The notes beneath the pieces are model-generated. The model saw only the letters and a list, made by a program, of their open reading frames with translations, made no database searches and had not been told where the DNA came from. Both the position numbers and the translations under genes were made by a program. Positions 1-33,906 of a DNA stretch of 39,744 nucleotides are shown here, piece after piece; position 1 is the stretch's first letter; each line of letters opens with the position of its first letter. Source of the stretch: Pseudomonadota bacterium (lineage in GTDB: Bacteria; Myxococcota_A; UBA9042; CAIXZC01); NCBI GenBank assembly GCA_043815665.1, contig JBDRIT010000013.1, positions 1 through 39,744 of the forward strand, in the 5' to 3' direction.

Positions 1-52
1 CTGAGGCTGAGCAACGGTAGGTGGGTCGGGCACTGAACGACTCAGGTTCGCC

Positions 53-130
53 GTGACCGTGACCGTGACCGTGACCGTGACCGTGACCGTGACCGTGACC
101 GTGACCGTGACCGTGACCGTGACCGTGACC
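53..130. repeat. (GTGACC)13 perfect hexanucleotide microsatellite
   Basis: 13 uninterrupted GTGACC units read directly in the sequence. No ORF of 60 aa or more spans it on either strand. Confidence 0.95.
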
Positions 131-683
131 GGCGCCAACCTCAGTTTGCCCCTCTGATCATGGGAGCCACAGCGGGATCATTTCGAGTAAATTCTGCACC
201 CGAGTTCTCTGCCAGAACCCACGAAGATGTCAGGAGGGCGAAAAAAAGGTTCTTCGCGATCGAGGTTGGGTCCGAGGTTCGTGGTGTGATGCGGGAGGTG
301 TCGCAGTGGCACCGAGGGGCCAACGCAAGGCCGAACCCCCCGCTCCGGTCGCGCGGCTCCGCCGGGCTCCCTTCTCTCCCCCCTCGGGGGGTCGAGAGGG
401 GTCTTGATGTAACCGCCAACTTACGTTTCGAGGGGCCAACCTCCCCCCCGTCGCCTCTGGCGACGTCGCCCCCAACGGGGGCGATTTTACCGTGCATGCT
501 GTGACGTTCGGGAGGGCTTCGGGCAGGTGCTGAGGCCCTCGGTGGGTTGCACTTGGCACGGGAAAAAATCTCCCCCTTGGGGTGAGGAGGGTACCGGCGC
601 AGCCGGTAGAACGCTCCGGTGGAGCGTTCGGCCCGACGCAAGGCGAGGAGCAGTGCGACGAGGGAGCTGCGAAGCAGCGAGGA

Positions 684-699
684 GGGGGGGGGGGGGGGG
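684..699. repeat. Homopolymeric G16 tract, followed by an A8 tract at 729-736
   Basis: Read directly: gaggag G16 ccggcc ... cccaaaaaaaag. It lies in a region with no credible ORF. Confidence 0.9.
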
Positions 700-756
700 C
701 CGGCCACCCAACGTCGATCGCGAAGACCCAAAAAAAAGTGCTTCTCCGAGCATTAT

Positions 757-806
757 TTCTGTACACCACCGCATCCGGCGGAGCCGGCGGGGCGGCTCGG
801 GATGAC
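757..806 (+). repeat. Copy A of a duplicated ~50 nt non-coding element (ACACCACC-N-TCCGGCGGAGCCGG-N-GGATGACGG)
   Basis: Near-identical to 1253-1301. It contains the hairpin CCGGC-gga-GCCGG and a GGGATGACGGG motif. Further GGATGACG copies occur at about 1166 and 1316. Confidence 0.6.
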
Positions 807-1252
807 GGGGGGAATCGGGGCGTAGGTCTCGTAGGAGCGGAGCTTCGTCCGCTCAACTGGGCTTCAAAGCCCCTCCTACAGTTTGGTCCGCGGTCGTCAT
901 TTCGCGCTTGGCTGATGATCCGGTCAAAGCTGAACGAGCCGATCCGGCCCCTGCCTTTGAGGCCGGCCTCCCCTTCTATTATGGTTCTCCCTTTACTTTG
1001 CGCTCGGCACTGGGGGCCTGCGTGGAGGGGTATCACCTGGACCGGCGTGAGCCGCAGCCAGGTGATGGCCCCGGAAACGGAGCAGGCCCCCGGAGACAGG
1101 CCGTTGTAGATGAGTGGGGCGATGCCCGAGAGGTTCACTTGACCGAAGGCCTCGCTGCGCTCGGGATGACGGGAGGGCTGCGCTTCTAGGAAACACCAAC
1201 CTCGGCTTTTTTCGACACAAGCTCAAAACCCAGCGATTCGCCGTGCATTTGT

Positions 1253-1301
1253 TTCTGAACACCACCTCGTCCGGCGGAGCCGGATGGGCAACTCAGGATG
1301 A
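1253..1301 (+). repeat. Copy B of the duplicated ~50 nt element
   Basis: The string catttgtttctgaacaccacctcgtccggcggagccgg...caggatgacg aligns with 743-806 at a high fraction of identical positions, in the same orientation. Confidence 0.6.
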
Positions 1302-1345
1302 CGACGGGGCGAGAGCGGGATGACGGGTTTCTTGCGCGACGACGA

Positions 1346-2143
1346 CTAGAGCAGCCCGACCTCATCCAGCCGCATCCAGCCGTCGCGCTCGTCCCCGATC
1401 CGGACCTCCAGGAGGCCGGCCTCGTCCGGGGTCGCGTCCAGGATGCGGATCTCGAGGCCCTCGGCCACGGGGATCCCCCGGGCCGCGGGGTTGGGGGCCT
1501 CCCGGAGCAGCGCGTCGGGGGCGGTGACCACAGCGAGGCGCAGCGTCCCGTCGGCCCAGAGGCGACCCCCGGCCAAGGTGAGGACCAGGAGGACGGGCAC
1601 CAGGGCCGCCCACGCGGCGACCCGCGCGGCCCCGTGGAGGTGGGCGAGACGCCGAAGCCCCAGGGCCCCCAGGGAGATCAGGAAGATCGCTGCGAGGGCC
1701 AGGGCGAGGGCGAGGATCAGGGGACGGGGGAGGATCGTGAACAGGGTCACCCAGAGCCCGTGGCTCTCGTCGAACACGAGCTGCCCCTTCTCGATGCGAT
1801 CCCGATCCCGCTCCAGCAACGCCTCCCGGGCCAGGGCCAGGTTGGCCTCGGTGTCCGCGGCCAGGTCCCCGCCCGGGTCCGCCCGGAGCGCCAGCTTGAG
1901 GTGGTGGATCGCCAGGCCGTAGCGCTCCATTCGGAGCGCCGCGGTGCCCAGGTTGTAGCGCAGGGCCGCGTTGTCCAGGCCCCCGTCCAGGAGGGCCTCG
2001 TAGCGCTGGAGCGCGGCCGCGTCCCGGCCCGCGAACCAGTCGTCGTTCGCTGCGCGCCACTGGGTCTCCGCGTCGACCCCGGCGCGGACCGGGCCCGCAG
2101 CGAGGAGCGCCGCCGCCGCCAGGAACAGCGAAAGGGATCTCAT
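1346..2143 (-). CDS. BatE-like protein (signal peptide, TPR-like region, TM segment, C-terminal SH3b-like domain); last gene of the Bat operon
   Basis: 265 aa ORF with an N-terminal signal peptide (MRSLSLFLAAAALLAAGPVRA), TPR-like helices, and a hydrophobic segment. Its start overlaps the batD-like stop by 4 nt (2140-2143). Its operon position matches BatE. Confidence 0.5.
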   Translation of the reverse strand: MRSLSLFLAAAALLAAGPVRAGVDAETQWRAANDDWFAGRDAAALQRYEALLDGGLDNAALRYNLGTAALRMERYGLAIHHLKLALRADPGGDLAADTEANLALAREALLERDRDRIEKGQLVFDESHGLWVTLFTILPRPLILALALALAAIFLISLGALGLRRLAHLHGAARVAAWAALVPVLLVLTLAGGRLWADGTLRLAVVTAPDALLREAPNPAARGIPVAEGLEIRILDATPDEAGLLEVRIGDERDGWMRLDEVGLL

Positions 2144-15593: not shown

Positions 15594-18101
15594 ATGCGCC
15601 TTCGAACGTCATTCCTGGCCGCCCTCTTGATCCTCCTTGCAGGCTGTGTGGAGCGCTACAGCTACCAGCACGTCAACGAAGACGCAGTCACTGCCGACAC
15701 CGGCGAGGTCGAGGGCGGCGACGTCTCCGGCGACGCCGCAGACGTCGGCGGTGACGGCGCGTGCGCGCCGGACTGCGCAGGCAGGATCTGCGGCCCTGAC
15801 GGCTGCGGCGGCGCCTGCGGGGACTGCGGCGTGGGCTACACCTGCGACCCGAAGGGGGAGACCTGTGCGGGGGACTGCGAGGCCCTCTGTGACGGCCTCC
15901 AGTGCGGCACCGCGGGGCTGGACGACGAGTGCGGCTGCGGGGACTGCGACGACGACGAGGCCTGCACCGACGACTTCTGCGGCGACGGGACCTGTGTCTA
16001 CGATCCCCTGGACAAGGAGTGCGACGACGGCGACCCCTGCACCATCGGCGACTGGTGCGTGGAGGGCCTCTGCGCGGCGACCGACAAGAACTGCGACGAC
16101 GGCAACCCCTGCACCGGCGACGCCTGCGGCGAGGCCGGGGAGTGCGTCTACACGAACAACACTGTGCCCTGCAACGACGAAGATCCCTGCACGGTGCCCG
16201 ATGTCTGCGCGGACGGGGCGTGCGTCGGGCAGCCGAAGGGCTGCGCCGATGACAACCCCTGCACCAAGGACTCCTGCAGTGATGCCGGGGTCTGCGACCA
16301 TGACCCCGTCGCCATGAACGGGGAGCCCTGCGACGACGGCAACCCCTGCACCGACGACGCGTGCTCCGGCGGGGGCTGTGTCGGCACCCTCAAGCTCCTG
16401 GAGGACCTCGAGGCGCTGGACTGCCTCTGCGCCGAGGACGCTGACTGTACGGATCTCGAGGACGCGGACGTCTGCAACGGCACCCTCGTCTGCGAGAAGG
16501 ACATGCCCGGGGATCCCGAGGGGATCTGCGTCGTCGACGACGGGACGATCCTCACCTGCGCGGACGAGATCGGCTGCACCGTAGACTCCTGCGACCCGGT
16601 GGACGGGTGCACCTTCACCGGTGCTGACGACCTCTGCGCCGACGAGGATCCCTGCACCGACGACCTCTGCGACGTCGTGCTGGGCTGTCAGCACCCCTTC
16701 AACGCCGCGCCCTGTGACGACGGCGACCAGTGCACCGACGGTGACCTCTGTGCGGAGGGCGTCTGCGCGGGGCCCGACGTGACGGACTGTGACGACCAGA
16801 TCGCCTGCACCGCGGACGGTTGCCAGGCAGAGAGCGGCTGCTCCCACGTCCCCGACGACGGGCTCTGCCCCGATTCCGGGGAGTGCCAGGTCGGGGTCTG
16901 CCTCCTCACCGCCGGCTGCAGCCTGGCGGACGCGGACGCCGGGACCCTCTGCGTCGGGGGCTCCTGCAAGGACGGGGCCTGTGTCCTCGTCGGGCAGGAT
17001 CTCTCCTGCGCCGAGATCAATGCCTGCGTCAAGGCCTGCGGGATCGGCGGCTCGGGATGCATGCAGGTGTGCGTCGACGCGGGGACGGTGGAGGGGAAGG
17101 ACCTCTTTGCGGACTTCGCCGCGTGCATGGACATCGCGTGTCCCGCCCCCGTGGAGCCGTCCTGTCCTCCCGTTGCGGAGGCGGGCGCCTGCGCGGCAGA
17201 GGCCGCCGCGTGCGAATCCGGCTGCGCGCCGGACTGCGCCGGCAAGGACTGCGGGGACGACGGCTGCGGGGGGTCCTGCGGGGACTGCGGCGGGAACGCG
17301 GCCCGCTGCCACGAGGGCGCCTGCATGCCTGCGGACATGGTCTGGGTGTCCCCGGGGGTCTTCGGCATGGGCTGCGTCGCGGCCGACACCGAGTGCGAAG
17401 GGGACGAAGACCCCTTCCACGAGGTCACCCTGGACGGCTTCGGCCTCGACGAGACCGAGGTGACCGTGCTGGACTACACGGGCTGCGTCGACGACGGCGG
17501 GGCCTGTGGGACCCCCGGGACCGGCGACAACTGCCTCTGGGCCACGGGGTGGGGGGTCAACAACAACCCGATCAACTGCGTGACCTGGGACATGGCCGAG
17601 GCCTACTGCGCGTGGACCGGGAAGCGCCTGTGCACCGAGGCCGAGTGGGAGAAGGGCGCCCGGGGCACCGACGGGCGGATCTACCCCTGGGGGGCCGCCG
17701 CGCCGACCTGCGCCCTCGCCGTGATCGACGGATGCGTGGGTGGGACCCAGGAGGTCGGCATCCACCCCGGGGGCGCAAGCCCCTATGGCGCCCAGGACAT
17801 GCTGGGCAACGTCTGGGAGTGGACCGCCGACTGGTACGCGGGGGACTACTACTGCAACGGGGACGGGGCCACGTGCACGGAGCTCTGCAGCGACTGCGCC
17901 GATCAGCCGGCCTTCGATGATCCCTGGGTCGATCCCGAGGGGCCCGCCGCGGGGAGCCTCCGGGTCACTCGCGGGGCCGCATTCTCCCACACGGATGTGC
18001 CCGGTGGCCTCGGCCTCAACACCCGGAATTCCCGCCGCCTGGGTCGGACCCCGACGGACAACTTCCCCACCGTCGGCTTCCGCTGCTGCTGGTCTCCGTA
18101 G
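15594..18101 (+). CDS. Lipoprotein with about 20 Dictyostelium-type CTDC cysteine-rich repeats and a C-terminal FGE/SUMF1-like domain
   Basis: The start is taken at the ATG at 15594 (MRLRTSFLAALLILLAGC, lipobox LAGC). The long upstream part of ORF 14577-18101 is the antisense shadow of aroC. Repeats have the form CxDGNPCTxDxC (for example DGNPCTGDACGEAGEC, DEDPCTVPDVC, DDNPCTKDSC). The C-terminal roughly 280 aa shows the FGE-sulfatase fold signature (WVSPGVFGMG...GNVWEWTADWY...RVTRGAAF...GFRCC). Confidence 0.75.
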   Translation: MRLRTSFLAALLILLAGCVERYSYQHVNEDAVTADTGEVEGGDVSGDAADVGGDGACAPDCAGRICGPDGCGGACGDCGVGYTCDPKGETCAGDCEALCDGLQCGTAGLDDECGCGDCDDDEACTDDFCGDGTCVYDPLDKECDDGDPCTIGDWCVEGLCAATDKNCDDGNPCTGDACGEAGECVYTNNTVPCNDEDPCTVPDVCADGACVGQPKGCADDNPCTKDSCSDAGVCDHDPVAMNGEPCDDGNPCTDDACSGGGCVGTLKLLEDLEALDCLCAEDADCTDLEDADVCNGTLVCEKDMPGDPEGICVVDDGTILTCADEIGCTVDSCDPVDGCTFTGADDLCADEDPCTDDLCDVVLGCQHPFNAAPCDDGDQCTDGDLCAEGVCAGPDVTDCDDQIACTADGCQAESGCSHVPDDGLCPDSGECQVGVCLLTAGCSLADADAGTLCVGGSCKDGACVLVGQDLSCAEINACVKACGIGGSGCMQVCVDAGTVEGKDLFADFAACMDIACPAPVEPSCPPVAEAGACAAEAAACESGCAPDCAGKDCGDDGCGGSCGDCGGNAARCHEGACMPADMVWVSPGVFGMGCVAADTECEGDEDPFHEVTLDGFGLDETEVTVLDYTGCVDDGGACGTPGTGDNCLWATGWGVNNNPINCVTWDMAEAYCAWTGKRLCTEAEWEKGARGTDGRIYPWGAAAPTCALAVIDGCVGGTQEVGIHPGGASPYGAQDMLGNVWEWTADWYAGDYYCNGDGATCTELCSDCADQPAFDDPWVDPEGPAAGSLRVTRGAAFSHTDVPGGLGLNTRNSRRLGRTPTDNFPTVGFRCCWSP

Positions 18102-18190
18102 CCTCCGACAGGTGGAGGTCTTTCTGTGGGAGGCCCGTCCACGGGCCGAATCGGGGCGTGGACGCCCCTCCCACAGTCGAGTGGCCAACC
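18102..18190. repeat. REP-like imperfect palindrome (long GC hairpin) between convergent genes; likely a bidirectional terminator
   Basis: CTGTGGGAGG-cc-CGTCCACG-ggccgaatcgggg-CGTGGACG-cc-CCTCCCACAG at 18124-18176, plus a small hairpin CCTCC-gacaggt-GGAGG at 18103-18119. One arm is repeated at 25941-25968. Confidence 0.6.
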
Positions 18191-25928: not shown

Positions 25929-25940
25929 GCATCTGTCTTT

Positions 25941-25968
25941 GTGGGAGGGGCGTCCACGCCCCGATTCG
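25941..25968. repeat. Partial copy (one arm) of the REP-like palindrome found at 18124-18176
   Basis: GTGGGAGGGGCGTCCACGCCCCGATTCG equals the reverse complement of 18146-18173. It lies between convergent greA and the TPR gene and forms a GGGG...CCCC hairpin. Confidence 0.5.
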
Positions 25969-29258: not shown

Positions 29259-30257
29259 ATGACCTCGCGCGGGGACCGGCCACCCGAGGGGGGCCACCGC
29301 CGGGACGAGCGCCGCCTCCACATCTGCATGGGCGAGGTCTGCAACAACAACTGCCTCTTCTGCATGGACAAGGGGGGTCGCCTCCGCCAGCGGCATCTCG
29401 AGCTCATCAACCCGGAGGAGACCCTCCGGTTCATGGAGGAGAACCGGGACCTGGGGGAGATCCTCTTCACCGCGGGGGAGCCCACCCTCCACGAGGACCT
29501 GGTCCGGTACATCGGGCACGCCAGGCGCCTGGGCTTCTACCGGATCGGGTTGATCACCAACGGCCGCCGCCTGGCCTACCACGCCTACGCGGAGGGCCTC
29601 CTGCGCGCGGGCCTCAACAGCGTGGTCCTCTCCATCCATGGCCACCAGGCGCGCCTCCACGACGGGCAGACCCGGACCCCCGGCAGCTTCGAGCAGACCG
29701 CGGCGGGCCTCCGCACCCTGTCGGATCTCAAGGCCGGGTGGGAGCTCCACCTCTCCACCTCCACCGTGGTGAACCGACGGAACGTCCCCCACCTCGACGG
29801 GATCCTCGCCTTCCTTCTGGCCTTCCCCCTGGACCAGATCGTGCTCAACGCGGTCCAGCCCCTCGGCCGCACCGCCGATCTCTTCAATCAGCTCGTCCCA
29901 CGGTACTCCGAGATCGTCGATGCCCTCTCCGTCGCGCTGGAGCATGTCCCGGAGGACCAGCGGGCCCGGATCCGTCTCCTGGACGTGCCCCCCTGCCTCC
30001 TGACCCGCCTCCCCGAGGAGACCCGGGGCTGGGTGGAGGAGCACCAGCACTTCGAGCGGCGGGGCGGTCTCCCTCGGGGCCTGGGGGACGCGGCGCTACG
30101 CAAGGGAACCCGCGGCGTGGTGCGCAAGAAGGACTTCGATGCGATCCAGCGCGCGTTCGGCCCGCCCTGCGAGGGCTGCCCCCTCCGGCCCCGCTGTGAC
30201 GGCGTCTGGCGGCGCTATGCGGAGGAGTACGGCTGGGACGAGTTCGGTGCCCCCTGA
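29259..30257 (+). CDS. Radical SAM enzyme, paralogue 1 of 4 (CNNNCLFC; C-terminal C...CxxCx5C)
   Basis: 332 aa. The motif VCNNNCLFCMDKGG lies near the N-terminus with TAGEPTL about 30 aa later. The C-terminus has PPCLL...PPCEGCPLRPRCDGVWRRYAEEYGWDEF. The ATG is 5 nt after the relA stop. Confidence 0.8.
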   Translation: MTSRGDRPPEGGHRRDERRLHICMGEVCNNNCLFCMDKGGRLRQRHLELINPEETLRFMEENRDLGEILFTAGEPTLHEDLVRYIGHARRLGFYRIGLITNGRRLAYHAYAEGLLRAGLNSVVLSIHGHQARLHDGQTRTPGSFEQTAAGLRTLSDLKAGWELHLSTSTVVNRRNVPHLDGILAFLLAFPLDQIVLNAVQPLGRTADLFNQLVPRYSEIVDALSVALEHVPEDQRARIRLLDVPPCLLTRLPEETRGWVEEHQHFERRGGLPRGLGDAALRKGTRGVVRKKDFDAIQRAFGPPCEGCPLRPRCDGVWRRYAEEYGWDEFGAP

Positions 30258-30348
30258 CGCCCTCCCCCCTGGCGTGGGGGCCCGGAAGTTGTTATTAAGC
30301 CACCAGGGGTTCCGATCTCGAGAGGATCCCGGAGGAGAGGGAGCGACC

Positions 30349-31311
30349 ATGGCCGACGAGCGGACGGCGCAATCCACCGAGCGGGTAGACGTCAAGACCG
30401 GCTTCAACTGCAACAACCGGTGCTTCTTCTGCGTTCAGGGGAACAAGCGCGACCTCTACGGCAACAAGTCCACCGAGGAGGTCAAGGAGACCCTGCGCGC
30501 CGCGGTGCAGGACTCCGACTCCATCGTATTCACCGGCGGCGAGGTCACGATCCGGCCCGACTTCATCGAGCTGGTCCGCTTCGCCAGGGAGCTCGGCTTC
30601 CGCAGCATCCAGGTCCAGACCAACGGCCGGATGCTGGCCTACAAGAAATTCGCAGAGCAGACCGTGGCGGCCGGGGCCAACGAGTTCTCCCCCGCGATCC
30701 ACGGCCACACGGCAGAGCTCCACGACTACCTGACCCGCTGCGCGGGGAGCTTCAAGCAGAGCGTGCAGTCGATCCGGAACCTCAAGGAGCTGGGCCAGCG
30801 GGTGATCACCAACTCCGTGATCACCCGCTCCAACTTCCGGCACCTCCCGGAGCTGGCCGCGCTCCTGGTCCGCCTCGGCGTCGATCAGTACCAGTTCGCG
30901 TTCGTCCACGCCCTGGGCACCGCACAGGAGAACTTCAGCCGGATCGTCCCCCGCATGACCCTGGTCGAGCCCTACGTGAAGCGCGGCATCCAGGTCGGCG
31001 TCCAGGCGGGCCGCATCGTCCTCACCGAGGCGATCCCCTACTGCTTCATGTCCGGGTACGAGGAGCACGTCGCCGAGCGCTTCATGCCCCGCACCAAGAT
31101 CTTCGATGCGAAGATGGTTGTGCAGGACTACACGAGCTACCGCTGGACCGAGGGCAAGGGCAAGGGGCCGCCTTGCAAGGACTGCACCTGGAATCCGGTC
31201 TGTGAGGGCCCCTGGAAGGACTACGTGGACGGCTATGGCTGGGACGAGTTCCTCCCCCGCACCGACGCGGTGACCATCACCCTCCCGGAGAGCCGGGGCA
31301 AGGGCTGCTGA
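30349..31311 (+). CDS. Radical SAM enzyme, paralogue 2 of 4 (CNNRCFFC; C-terminal C...CxxCx5C)
   Basis: The start is taken at the ATG at 30349 (RBS GGAGGAGAGGGAG). The ORF 30139 extension is GC-rich read-through. Motifs are FNCNNRCFFCVQG, TGGEVTI and PPCKDCTWNPVCEGPWKDYVDGYGWDEF. 320 aa. Confidence 0.8.
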   Translation: MADERTAQSTERVDVKTGFNCNNRCFFCVQGNKRDLYGNKSTEEVKETLRAAVQDSDSIVFTGGEVTIRPDFIELVRFARELGFRSIQVQTNGRMLAYKKFAEQTVAAGANEFSPAIHGHTAELHDYLTRCAGSFKQSVQSIRNLKELGQRVITNSVITRSNFRHLPELAALLVRLGVDQYQFAFVHALGTAQENFSRIVPRMTLVEPYVKRGIQVGVQAGRIVLTEAIPYCFMSGYEEHVAERFMPRTKIFDAKMVVQDYTSYRWTEGKGKGPPCKDCTWNPVCEGPWKDYVDGYGWDEFLPRTDAVTITLPESRGKGC

Positions 31312-32972
31312 TGCCAGGCGACACCACCGCCGAGATCAAGGAGTCCGCGGCCCAGGAGAAGCGCCAGTGGGTCCGGCTCACGAAGCTCTGCAACAACCGC
31401 TGCACCTTCTGCCTCGACTCCGAGGCCCAGGACGGGACCATGGTGCCCGCGGACGCGGTGCGGCGACGGATCATCGAGGGCCGCGAGGCCGGCGCGACCC
31501 GCCTGATCCTCAGCGGCGGGGAGCCCACGATCCACCCGGACTACCTCTCCTTCATCGAGGCGGGGCGCCACGCGGGCTACCGCTGGGTCCAGACCATCTC
31601 CAACGGCAGGATGTTCTCCTACAAGAAATTCGCGGACCGGGCCCTGGCCGCGGGGCTGGACGAGGCCACCTTCTCCATCCACGGGCACACCCCCGGGATC
31701 CACGATCGGCTCACCGGGGTCCCCGGGTCCTTCGACCAGGCCCTGCGGGGGCTGAAGAACCTCCTGGGACGGTGCGTGACCAACGTGGACGTGGTGCTCA
31801 ACAAGCAGAACGTCCCCCACCTGCGGGAGCTCCTCGAGTTCTTCATGGACCTGGGGATCCACGAGTTCGACCTGCTCCACACCGTCCCCTTCGGCCTGGC
31901 CTGGTGCGAGAACCGGGACGCGCTGTTCTACGACCCCGCGGTGCTCTCGGCGGATCTCCGGCGTGCCTTCGAGCTGCGCCACCGGGACGGCATCTACATG
32001 TGGACCAACCGCCTCCCCGCCCGCTACCTCGAGGGGGCCGAGGACCTGATCCAGGATCCCAAGAAGATCCACGACGAGGTCCGGGGCCGCTGGGATCACT
32101 TCCAGACCTGGGTCGACACCGGGGAGCCGCTGCCCTGCCGGGACGAGCGCTGCCCCTTCTGCTTCCTTGAGGGGTTCTGTGACCGCCTTGGGGACGTGGT
32201 GGAGGCGCGCCTCGGACGGCGGGCCGCGGGGGACGGCGCGACCCGGGTCCGGGCGGACTGTGGGAGGGGCTTCAGCCCCGACGGCGGACACGGGACCTCC
32301 TGGCCTGCGGATCTCGCGCTGCCCGAGGCGATCCGGCTGGAAGTCATCGCGGCGACCCCCGAGGACGCGGAGGCCTGGCTGGAGGCCTTCCCCGGCATGG
32401 TGGAGCATCTCACCCTGGTGGTGGCGCCCTGGGCGACGGATCCGGGTCCCTGGGCCGGGCTCCTCGCACGGGCCGACTCTGTCCGCCTGGGGCCCGACGC
32501 GCCGGACGCGGGAGCCGACGCGATCCTTGCCGCCTGGCGGGCTGCGCCGCGGCGGGGGCGCCTGGAGGTGCCCGCGCTCATCGGGCTCGGGGACATCCTG
32601 GACACGGGGGACGGGGACGAGGCCTTCTACGTCCCCGTGCGGGAGCGCCTCACCGTGGCCATGGCCCGGGATCTGGACCTGGACGGGGTCCGGGCGCTGC
32701 ATCTCCGTACCGGGCGCCCCGTCGAGGGGCTGCCCCCCTGTCTGGACACCGGTGCGACCCCGCCCCCGGCGTTGGCGGAGCTGGATCTCACCCTCCTCGA
32801 CCCGGCCGGGCGACTGGACATGATCCGCTACACCGACGACTATATCGCCCGGTGGTACATGGTGAAGAGCCACCGGTGCGACGGCTGCCCGCGCACCGGG
32901 GCGTGCCCCGGGATCCACATCTCCGGGGCCCGGCGCTTCGGGCTCGCGGCGCTCACGCCCGTCGAGGAGTGA
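31311..32972 (+). CDS. Radical SAM enzyme, paralogue 3 of 4, with a ~250 aa C-terminal extension (CNNRCTFC; extra CRDERCPFCFLEGFC; terminal CDGCPRTGAC)
   Basis: 553 aa. Its ATG overlaps the previous TGA (tgATG). Motifs are LCNNRCTFCLD and SGGEPTI. A mid-protein Cys cluster and an Ala/Asp/Pro-rich low-complexity region lie between the core and the terminal CxxCx5C. Confidence 0.75.
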   Translation: MPGDTTAEIKESAAQEKRQWVRLTKLCNNRCTFCLDSEAQDGTMVPADAVRRRIIEGREAGATRLILSGGEPTIHPDYLSFIEAGRHAGYRWVQTISNGRMFSYKKFADRALAAGLDEATFSIHGHTPGIHDRLTGVPGSFDQALRGLKNLLGRCVTNVDVVLNKQNVPHLRELLEFFMDLGIHEFDLLHTVPFGLAWCENRDALFYDPAVLSADLRRAFELRHRDGIYMWTNRLPARYLEGAEDLIQDPKKIHDEVRGRWDHFQTWVDTGEPLPCRDERCPFCFLEGFCDRLGDVVEARLGRRAAGDGATRVRADCGRGFSPDGGHGTSWPADLALPEAIRLEVIAATPEDAEAWLEAFPGMVEHLTLVVAPWATDPGPWAGLLARADSVRLGPDAPDAGADAILAAWRAAPRRGRLEVPALIGLGDILDTGDGDEAFYVPVRERLTVAMARDLDLDGVRALHLRTGRPVEGLPPCLDTGATPPPALAELDLTLLDPAGRLDMIRYTDDYIARWYMVKSHRCDGCPRTGACPGIHISGARRFGLAALTPVEE

Positions 32973-32973
32973 T

Positions 32974-33906
32974 ATGGCGAATCTCGGCTACATCCAGGTC
33001 ACCCGCACCTGCAACCAGGCTTGCATCTTCTGCTCCAACCCCGAGCTGGATCGCGAGGCCACCCTGGCGGACGTCGAGGGCCTGGTGGACGACTTCGTGG
33101 CGCGGGGTTACGACGGGGTCATCATCACCGGCGGGGAGCCGACCCTCTTCTGCCAGCTCCCCGAGCTCATCGCGTACGCGACCTCGAAGGGCCTGGGCGT
33201 CCGGATGATCACCAACGGGCAGAAGACCTGCGACATGGACTTCCTGCGGCCCCTGTACGACGCGGGGCTCCGCCATGTCCACCAGTCCGTCTACACCCAC
33301 GATCCCGAGATCCAGGCCCGCCTCACCGGCAGGGCCGAGTCCCACGTGAACCTCTGCGCAAGCCTGGACAACTTCGGCGCGCTGGAGATGCAGGTGGACG
33401 TGAACATCACCATCCAGAGGTACAACGCCAACCACCTGGATCGGGTGGTGGTCTGGCTCCTGGAGCGGTGGCCCTTCATTCACCACGTGGTCTTCAACAA
33501 CCTCGACCCCACCTCGGACCGGGTGGCCGAGAACAGGGACGTGGTGCACAAGCTCGCGGACATGGAGCCCTTCCTGTTCCGGGCCCTCTCGTACCTCGAG
33601 CGCCACGGGCGCACCTACCGGGTGGAGCGGGTCCCCCTGTGCTACATGACCGAGTTCGCCCACGCGTCCACCGAGACCCGCAAGATCGTCAAGGGGGAGG
33701 AGCGCATCGTGCACTTCCTCGACGAGAAGGGCATGGTGCGCCAGACGGACTGGGAGCACGGCAAGGCCGACGTCTGCGCGGGCTGCTCCCTGACGTCGAT
33801 CTGCGCGGGGCTCTTCGAGATGGACAACTTCTATCAGAGCAGCGAGCTCTATCCGCTCTTCGTCCCCAAGGAGCCCATCGTCCGCCGGATCCTGAAGGGG
33901 AGATGA
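32974..33906 (+). CDS. Radical SAM enzyme, paralogue 4 of 4 (CNQACIFC; C-terminal C...CxxCx5C)
   Basis: 310 aa with the ATG 1 nt after the previous stop and a GAGGAG RBS. Motifs are TCNQACIFCSNPE, TGGEPTL and VPLCYM...VCAGCSLTSICAGLFEMDNFY. Confidence 0.8.
   Translation: MANLGYIQVTRTCNQACIFCSNPELDREATLADVEGLVDDFVARGYDGVIITGGEPTLFCQLPELIAYATSKGLGVRMITNGQKTCDMDFLRPLYDAGLRHVHQSVYTHDPEIQARLTGRAESHVNLCASLDNFGALEMQVDVNITIQRYNANHLDRVVVWLLERWPFIHHVVFNNLDPTSDRVAENRDVVHKLADMEPFLFRALSYLERHGRTYRVERVPLCYMTEFAHASTETRKIVKGEERIVHFLDEKGMVRQTDWEHGKADVCAGCSLTSICAGLFEMDNFYQSSELYPLFVPKEPIVRRILKGR

Follow-up and report, generated by a model that had tools for sequence, protein, structure and literature searches.

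The first 1345 nucleotides of contig JBDRIT010000013.1 are probably a mosaic of mobile and repeated elements, i.e., non-coding intergenic DNA at a contig end and at a site of lineage-variable gene order, directly downstream of a Bat-like operon. The window (the whole stretch of DNA analysed, 39,744 bp) is an entire contig of a metagenome-assembled genome (MAG), and positions 1-1345 are therefore located at the contig end. An earlier note on this DNA had expected the region to continue past the window edge, but the assembly holds nothing beyond position 1. Its description of a non-coding, repeat-dense stretch, unusual for a compact genome, holds, and nearly all the features that it listed were found, a few of them 1-4 nt away from the stated coordinates; none of the three identities it put forward (structured non-coding RNA, degraded gene or contingency locus) was supported. 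The feature that organises the region, a 24-nt inverted repeat, had been missed. It delimits a 482-bp non-autonomous ISL3-family element, a MITE (miniature inverted-repeat transposable element), which is inserted into a run of eight A residues. The A7 and A8 runs noted before, like the G16 tract and most of the hairpins, all go back to this single element, and the odd 1.3-kb gene desert is explained without a new RNA or a regulatory switch.

The MITE and its boundaries comprise the following features.
248-729: 482-bp non-autonomous ISL3-type element (MITE), without transposase
248-271, plus strand: left terminal inverted repeat (TIR) of the MITE, GGTTCTTCGCGATCGAGGTTGGGT, complementary to 706-729 at 22 of 24 positions
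706-729, minus strand: right TIR of the MITE, inverted repeat of 248-271
240-247: target-site duplication (8 bp), left copy, GAAAAAAA, abutting the outer end of the left TIR
730-737: right copy of the target-site duplication, AAAAAAAA, also the start of direct-repeat copy 1 (see below)

The two TIRs, each of 24 nt, lie 434 nt apart, and no such match occurred in shuffled sequences. GAAAAAAA and AAAAAAAA agree at seven of eight positions, and their placement on either side of the inverted repeat identifies the A7 and A8 runs as a target-site duplication. The former run had been placed correctly at 241-247, whereas the latter lies at 730-737 and not at 729-736. In two papers, TIRs starting with GGCTCTTCG(CG) and 8-bp direct repeats are described for ISL3 elements and for a MITE mobilised by ISL3 (PMC6305408, PMC11448079). 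The MITE ends read GG(T/G)TCTTCGCG, and the start of the TIR, GGYTCTTCGCG, agrees with published ISL3 ends.

The TIR sequence usable for searching is GGNTCTTCRCGATCGASGTTGGGT. Metagenome contigs of the Joint Genome Institute were scanned with a degenerate TIR pattern, which returned four loci (L021, L022, L023 and L024). L021 harbours an element of 1452 bp that shares these TIRs and shows a perfect duplication of 8 bp (ACAAATAT). Its 406-aa open reading frame (ORF) contains the PF01610 DDE_Tnp_ISL3 domain (5.8e-68) together with the ISL3 helix-turn-helix and a zinc ribbon; among plasmid-borne ISL3 transposases, the nearest to it has only 46% identity. The TIRs of the window match those of this insertion sequence (IS) at 23-24 of 24 positions (23/24 for the left TIR). 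L023 carries a full IS and, between TIRs of the same kind, a cassette of 723 bp, the cassette being flanked by T-rich sequence with an imperfect duplication only, and L022 and L024 are contig ends which stop 55 nt inside further MITE copies. A second copy of the MITE, with unrelated flanks, was found on L020, a contig of 1335 bp whose sample also yielded one close relative (L002; ERZ24794671). It is 87% identical over window positions 248-691 and 85% over 681-735, and where the G-run would lie it is split by an insertion of ~570 bp. Neither the MITE core nor the TIR had a match when IMG/VR was scanned. Altogether, TIRs matching those of an ISL3 IS, the flanking duplication and the second copy make 248-729 a non-autonomous ISL3-type element. 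Apart from the 24-nt TIRs, its interior is unrelated to the L021 IS; since only the TIRs are common to both, it is cargo rather than a transposase gene reduced by deletion. Between the MITE copies the amino-acid identity (72%) is lower than the nucleotide identity (87%), and the ORFs have no Pfam match.

An ISL3 transposase, supplied in trans, would recognise the 24-nt TIRs. It probably inserted the MITE into the A8 run, a rare AT-rich target in a genome of ~73% GC, with 8 bp duplicated in the process. One of two direct repeat units of ~92 nt starts with this target A-run, and the site before insertion would read ...GGGCGAAAAAAAAGTGCTTC... without the 482 bp.

The interior of the MITE is rich in hairpins.
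449-484: two adjacent perfect hairpins, CGTCGCC-TCT-GGCGACG (449-465) and TCGCCCCC-AAC-GGGGGCGA
609-629: perfect hairpin, GAACGCTCC-GGT-GGAGCGTTC
562-688, minus strand: best-conserved core of the MITE; cluster of hairpins, the last of which is terminator-like and followed by T6

Both hairpins singled out by the earlier note are indeed perfect, with their extents corrected from 449-463 to 449-465 and from 606-629 to 609-629. Six perfect hairpins with 3-nt loops are present in the window copy. Compared with L020, none of the 82 stem positions differs, against 6 of 18 loop positions and 49 of 344 other positions (stems vs rest, 0/82 vs 55/362; Fisher p = 9e-6), although the hairpins were defined on the window copy and the contrast is to that extent somewhat biased. 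Within the pair at 449-484 all differences fall in the loops, and the stems match exactly. The core at 562-688 has two differences in 127 nt (98% identity), both in the loop of the 592-608 hairpin, whereas 248-560 is ~82% identical. As RNA, this core folds with z = -5.0 (minus strand) and z = -2.2 (plus strand); the whole MITE folded as single-stranded DNA has z = -6.1. The terminator-like site occupies 590-562 on the minus strand, which is the strand of the Bat operon. In our interpretation the hairpins would act at most as passive terminator or insulator structures.

Two simple-sequence tracts are found in the region, one of them within the MITE.
684-699: homopolymer tract G16, carried by the MITE beside its right TIR (Tandem Repeats Finder)
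51-131: perfect hexanucleotide microsatellite (CCGTGA)13.5 = (GTGACC)n (Tandem Repeats Finder score 162, 100% matches)

Tandem Repeats Finder agrees with the reported G16 tract; the array described earlier as (GTGACC)13 at 53-130 is present and perfect, but is delimited by the program as (CCGTGA) x13.5 at 51-131. At the equivalent position of the MITE, the G-run measures 16 nt in the window, 8 and 11 in L020 and 9 in L022/L024, these being differences between paralogous copies in different assemblies and not between alleles. The G16 tract is located ~650 nt from the nearest gene end and is tied to no ORF or promoter. The origin of the (CCGTGA)13.5 array is unexplained. An IMG/VR scan for the microsatellite returned 15 unrelated contigs, and the sole likeness in the loci of relatives is (GTGGCC)5 at L002 7482-7519 (also in L003-L005), which in L002 encodes (VA)n in the signal peptide of a penicillin amidase gene. 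Both the G16 tract and the array may be by-products of replication slippage, which would control no gene.

Hexamer arrays also occur in two of the loci related to the MITE. In L023 (JACKQG010058462.1) the cassette with ISL3 TIRs spans 491-1213 and contains a gene for a 119-aa four-helix-bundle protein (PF05635 23S_rRNA_IVP, 2.4e-23), which is flanked by inverted imperfect hexamer arrays at 607-664 and 1071-1128; the full IS copy follows 18 nt after the cassette. The insertion in L020 (163-730 of ERZ24794671 NODE_801718) is nested at the G-run of the MITE, with CCTCCCCC on both sides, and contains a 44-nt perfect inverted repeat of hexamer units (285-328/436-479) around a loop of ~107 nt. It looks like the L023 module with its gene deleted. 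That the array of the window is one arm of such an inverted module was considered and is no more than a speculation: its flanks show no similarity above shuffles to L023 and L020. No IVP-like coding remnant was found in the window.

The absence of a protein-like ORF from 1-1345, already stated in the earlier note, was borne out by codon-position GC, third-position GC (GC3) and a Pfam scan. The spread of GC between codon positions is 0.02-0.20 over 151-1275 vs 0.4-0.5 in the adjoining genes, and the GC3 of open frames beside the microsatellite is 0.50-0.75 vs 0.92-0.95 in genes. The GC content of the region is lower (56-68% vs 72-78%). Ten ORFs of the region (59-302 aa) gave a single Pfam match, far under threshold. 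Two spurious ORFs, the longest of the region, were compared with 5.8 billion protein clusters: the 175-aa plus-strand ORF had no homologues, and the sole match of the 302-aa minus-strand ORF was the MITE copy in L020. The Rfam scan that had been proposed as a check assigned no family: there were no matches in the whole window at gathering thresholds, and in E-value mode only chance-level ones, the best scoring 27.3 bits vs a threshold of 41.8 and belonging to a viral family. ARAGORN found no tRNA or tmRNA, no promoter-like sites were detected on either strand of the region, and blastn of 132-1345 against PLSDB plasmids gave no match. The folding of 738-1345 is no better than that of shuffles (z = -0.5), local hairpins notwithstanding. 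The reading of the region as a structured non-coding RNA locus is not supported, in view of the lack of an Rfam family and of this shuffle-like folding.

Immediately next to the region lies the Bat operon that the earlier note had recognised, found by us as a minus-strand MoxR-DUF58-VWA-VWA/TPR-BatD-like-TPR operon.
1346-2143, minus strand: last gene of the Bat-like operon, 265-aa TPR protein (100% protein match to ABIK09_01260)

The relatives L002-L017 and L026-L029, with TPR proteins 74-88% identical, all carry a convergent gene of 231-305 aa directly after the operon, usually followed by genes for a pyridoxal phosphate-dependent decarboxylase, a DUF819 protein and penicillin amidase; one 75% relative has a different neighbour after the operon. 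Of all these neighbour genes, none occurs in the window. DNA homology to the relatives (80-82% identity in the TPR gene) ends at the TPR stop codon, at window position ~1347. As the neighbour genes differ among relatives, the spot downstream of the operon is variable between lineages. In the present lineage, repeats have taken the place of the usual neighbour, with no sign of in-place gene decay.

The remainder of the region contains repeats of a second kind, which end in a common motif.
730-821, plus strand: direct-repeat copy 1 (~92 nt), with a CCGGC-GGA-GCCGG hairpin, ending in CTCGGGATGACG
1224-1320, plus strand: direct-repeat copy 2, with two GGATGACG ends, at 1296 and 1318
1124-1176, plus strand: right-half fragment of a GTCATCC...GGATGAC palindrome, left half missing
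L008 5810-5932, L008 8728-8837 and L013 672-761: complete palindromes in relatives

A direct duplication of roughly 50 nt (757-806 and 1253-1301) had been described; it is real but extends over 60 nt, 753-812 vs 1249-1308, with 82% identity. When the MITE and one copy of its target duplication were removed in silico, the direct repeat grew to ~92-96 nt (~730-821 vs 1224-1320), with an alignment score of 93 vs 21 +/- 3.5 for shuffles. The MITE is inserted into the A-run that begins copy 1. The motif GGATGACG does occur four times, as claimed, at 800, 1164, 1296 and 1318 (given before as about 797, 1166, 1294 and 1316). All four copies are on the plus strand, and two more exist in the other 38 kb. 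The whole-window count is only marginally above that of shuffles, and the notable point is how the copies cluster within the region; of the longer form, CGGGATGACG, the window has three copies, all of them in the region. No further copy of the 92-nt unit came from a scan of 185,579 GTDB species genomes with a 22-base core of the repeat unit: the one match, a short hairpin between genes of an unrelated groundwater MAG, was judged to be due to chance.

The direct-repeat units end in ...CTCRGGATGACG, which is the terminal motif of palindromic elements of 90-123 nt. Complete palindromes, GTCATCCYGAG...CTCRGGATGAC, are found in L008, L009, L010, L013 and L016. At the site between the VWA-TPR and BatD-like genes, the palindrome is present in L008 and L013 and absent from L002, L018 and the window; presence and absence at the same orthologous site means that these palindromes come and go. 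An element of the GGATGAC type is found right after the TPR stop codon in three lineages (L008, L025 and the window): it lies 21 nt after the stop in L008, and the L025 contig ends inside it, 41 nt after the stop. Over window positions 1150-1171, identity with the termini of the complete palindromes of L008, L009 and L010 is 95.7% (22/23 aligned). The window itself holds only one-sided or rearranged palindrome fragments. For the terminal sequences GTCATCC/GGATGAC, the literature yielded nothing but coincidental matches to primers.

Three further features belong to the stretches that remain.
1-50: contig-end sequence, non-coding-like, of unassigned origin
829-880: pair of small hairpins enclosed by GTAGGAG...CTCCTAC, present in the predicted minimum-free-energy and centroid structures
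1015-1088: 74-nt hairpin, with an Rfam match at chance level

Within 1-50, two minus-strand frames are open to the edge (GC3 0.50 and 0.56), and every plus-strand frame is stopped before position 40. No further copy of the 829-880 hairpin pair was seen among the fetched loci.

Several observations speak against the interpretation of the region as a mosaic of mobile and repeated elements, or against parts of it. A parent element and additional copies are demonstrated only for the MITE, which makes up 37% of the region; no further copy of the ~92-nt unit was found in the sequences searched, where 1-239 and 813-1123 likewise had no relatives, and these stretches remain unassigned. The target duplication in the window is imperfect (7/8), the MITE copy in L020 has no recognisable one, and no ISL3 transposase was seen in the 39.7-kb contig. 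Finally, the extreme conservation of 562-688 and the never-varying stems of the MITE hairpins hint at a function beyond that of passive debris.

This last point underlies an alternative in which the 127-nt hairpin cluster at 562-688 is a structured small RNA, or a portable, possibly bidirectional, terminator or insulator spread by ISL3 transposition. The 98% identity of the core between copies, compared with ~82% for the rest of the MITE, argues for it, as do the 82 invariant stem positions alongside 6 changed loop positions out of 18, the minus-strand RNA fold (z = -5.0) and the hairpin with T6 at its end on the strand of the Bat operon. Yet there is no promoter-like site on either strand and no Rfam match, and the sequence upstream of the core is wholly different between the copies, L020 having its ~570-bp insertion there. 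The comparison rests on two copies with stems defined on one of them, which biases the contrast, and recent recombination could also have produced an identical block. We regard this alternative as unlikely. If it were true, the MITE would be a mobile structured module with a core kept near-identical across genomes while the rest drifts, and its G-run would give each copy a hypermutable length; with a small RNA as the core, the region would contain a true RNA element, though one brought in by the transposon.

The contig end could also be a chimera, joined through a shared repeat, in which case 1-1345 would not truly follow the Bat operon. The location at a contig end and the lower GC (56-68% vs 72-78%) would fit, and related repeats demonstrably break assemblies, as L022, L024 and L025 end inside them. 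Low GC is, however, normal for intergenic and mobile DNA; the GTCATCC element of L008, ~21 nt after the same stop codon, suggests that at least 1318-1345 is native, and copies of the MITE family come from the same samples as close relatives (L002 and L020 in ERZ24794671; L013, L022 and L024 in ERZ890953). A misjoin is consequently quite improbable in our view. Smaller still is the chance that 1-1345 is the decayed remnant of the convergent ~264-aa gene, perhaps with further genes: the region sits exactly where relatives have this gene, and a weak codon-position periodicity (0.18-0.20) is seen over 901-1200, but tblastn with four orthologues gave only matches with E of at least 0.04, non-collinear and inconsistent between orthologues, and the long ORFs in the best frames of both strands have no homologues. 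A decayed orthologue should be visible, given that the adjoining TPR gene has kept 80-82% identity in its DNA sequence. We attach hardly any probability to a contingency (phase-variation) locus in which the length of the G16 tract and/or of (CCGTGA)n would switch a gene beyond the contig end. Both tracts are long and perfect, and the G-run varies between MITE copies (16, 8 and 11, 9). Against this, the G16 tract is transposon cargo that adjoins no ORF or promoter, its length differences are paralogous and not allelic, and the frames open through the microsatellite have non-coding-like flanks (GC3 0.50-0.56) and lack a good start codon or ribosome-binding site. Neither tract was found in an ORF or in promoter spacing, there being no coding signal or promoter-like site around either of them.

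A mosaic of mobile and repeated elements thus remains our preferred interpretation of 1-1345. It introduces an undescribed ISL3-type MITE and a parent-type IS from an uncultured high-GC lineage, labelled Pseudomonadota/Deltaproteobacteria by NCBI. Together with GTCATCC...GGATGAC palindromes, such MITE/IS elements mark out a site prone to recombination immediately downstream of the Bat-like operon, where they interrupt metagenome assemblies time and again. The MITE and GGATGAC-type repeats systematically break short-read assemblies: contigs from samples of the relatives end inside copies of one or the other at L022 1741-1794, L024 1-55 and L025 1431-1471, and L022 and L024 overlap by 55 identical bases. 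For genome scanning in general, homopolymer runs flanking an inverted repeat are a signature of target-site duplication, which should be checked before a contingency locus or a non-coding RNA is proposed.

Some other repeats of the window deserve mention. A second small repeat family is intergenic and situated just after stop codons, at 18125-18176 and 25940-25968. Its 29-nt unit, TGTGGGAGGGGCGTCCACGCCCCGATTCG, occurs in inverted copies that are 100% identical and separated by 7.8 kb; paired with a related unit, it makes up an inverted dimer at 18125-18176, a REPIN-like layout. At the other contig end (39065-39349), an 18-nt tandem repeat of 10.6 copies (GCCGAGGAGGCTCCCGCC), which reads AEEAPA in one frame, is preceded by Lys/Glu-rich repeats of 15/27 nt, all inside overlapping ORFs. 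Four neighbouring genes at 29339-33033 each contain CTGCAACAAC...TGC..CTTCTGC (C-N-N-x-C-x-F-C), which suggests a cluster of paralogous enzymes of the radical S-adenosylmethionine type. A long ORF at 15690-17300 contains ~12 copies of a Cys-rich repeat of 72-78 nt (CDDGNPCTDD-like); a similar Cys-rich coding region adjoins the MITE copy in L024, consistent with a related host.

Among known systems, the MITE is closest to the ISL3-mobilised MITE of Microcystis aeruginosa, with GGCTCTTCG terminal repeats and 8-nt direct repeats (PMC11448079), and to ISL3 ISs such as ISArsp7 (PMC6305408), as its TIR begins GG(N)TCTTCGCG and it is flanked by an 8-bp duplication. In common with ISL3 MITEs, it is small (482 bp) and devoid of a transposase, while full ISs with the same TIRs exist and copies are found at unrelated loci. 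Unlike a simple deletion derivative, it has an interior unrelated to that of the IS, and unlike the known ISL3 MITEs, it contains perfect triloop hairpins in a conserved cluster, together with a G-run of variable length. Mobile insertion cassettes consist of IS ends enclosing passenger genes. The L023 cassette (491-1213) resembles them, as its ISL3 TIRs enclose a 23S_rRNA_IVP (PF05635) gene but no transposase; it belongs to another metagenome contig, and the window MITE, in contrast, carries no ORF. Simple-sequence contingency loci are known in Haemophilus and Neisseria; the window shares with them long and perfect homopolymer and hexamer tracts, which are, however, not placed in a reading frame or promoter.

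The direct repeats recall the CGTC-tagged repetitive extragenic palindromic sequences (REPs), among them dRS3 (CGTC-1), which in Neisseria is interleaved with other repeat families in mosaic intergenic regions (Di Nocera et al. 2013, PMC3733652). Such REPs number tens to thousands in a genome. All four GGATGACG copies read CGTCATCC on the minus strand, i.e., CGTC and then AT, no dedicated transposase is known for them, and inverted dimers exist in relatives. The stem of CGTC-tagged REPs (8-9 bp, with a loop of 4-5 nt and, after it, a short CCA-like tail) is absent next to the tag in the four window copies, as checked over the 30 nt after each CGTC (the copy at 1164 was paired by hand with loops of 4 or 5 nt, giving at most 4 of 8 stem positions, and the other three were checked by reading). 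Furthermore, the complete elements of the relatives are long-range palindromes of 90-123 nt, unlike REPs of 20-40 nt. We therefore see a resemblance to CGTC-tagged REPs and do not claim membership. The layout of the hairpin pair at 829-880 is, by eye and in this single instance, like that of GTAG-tagged REPs. In its overall architecture the region parallels the mosaic regions of Neisseria, with several repeat families clustered in one large intergenic region.

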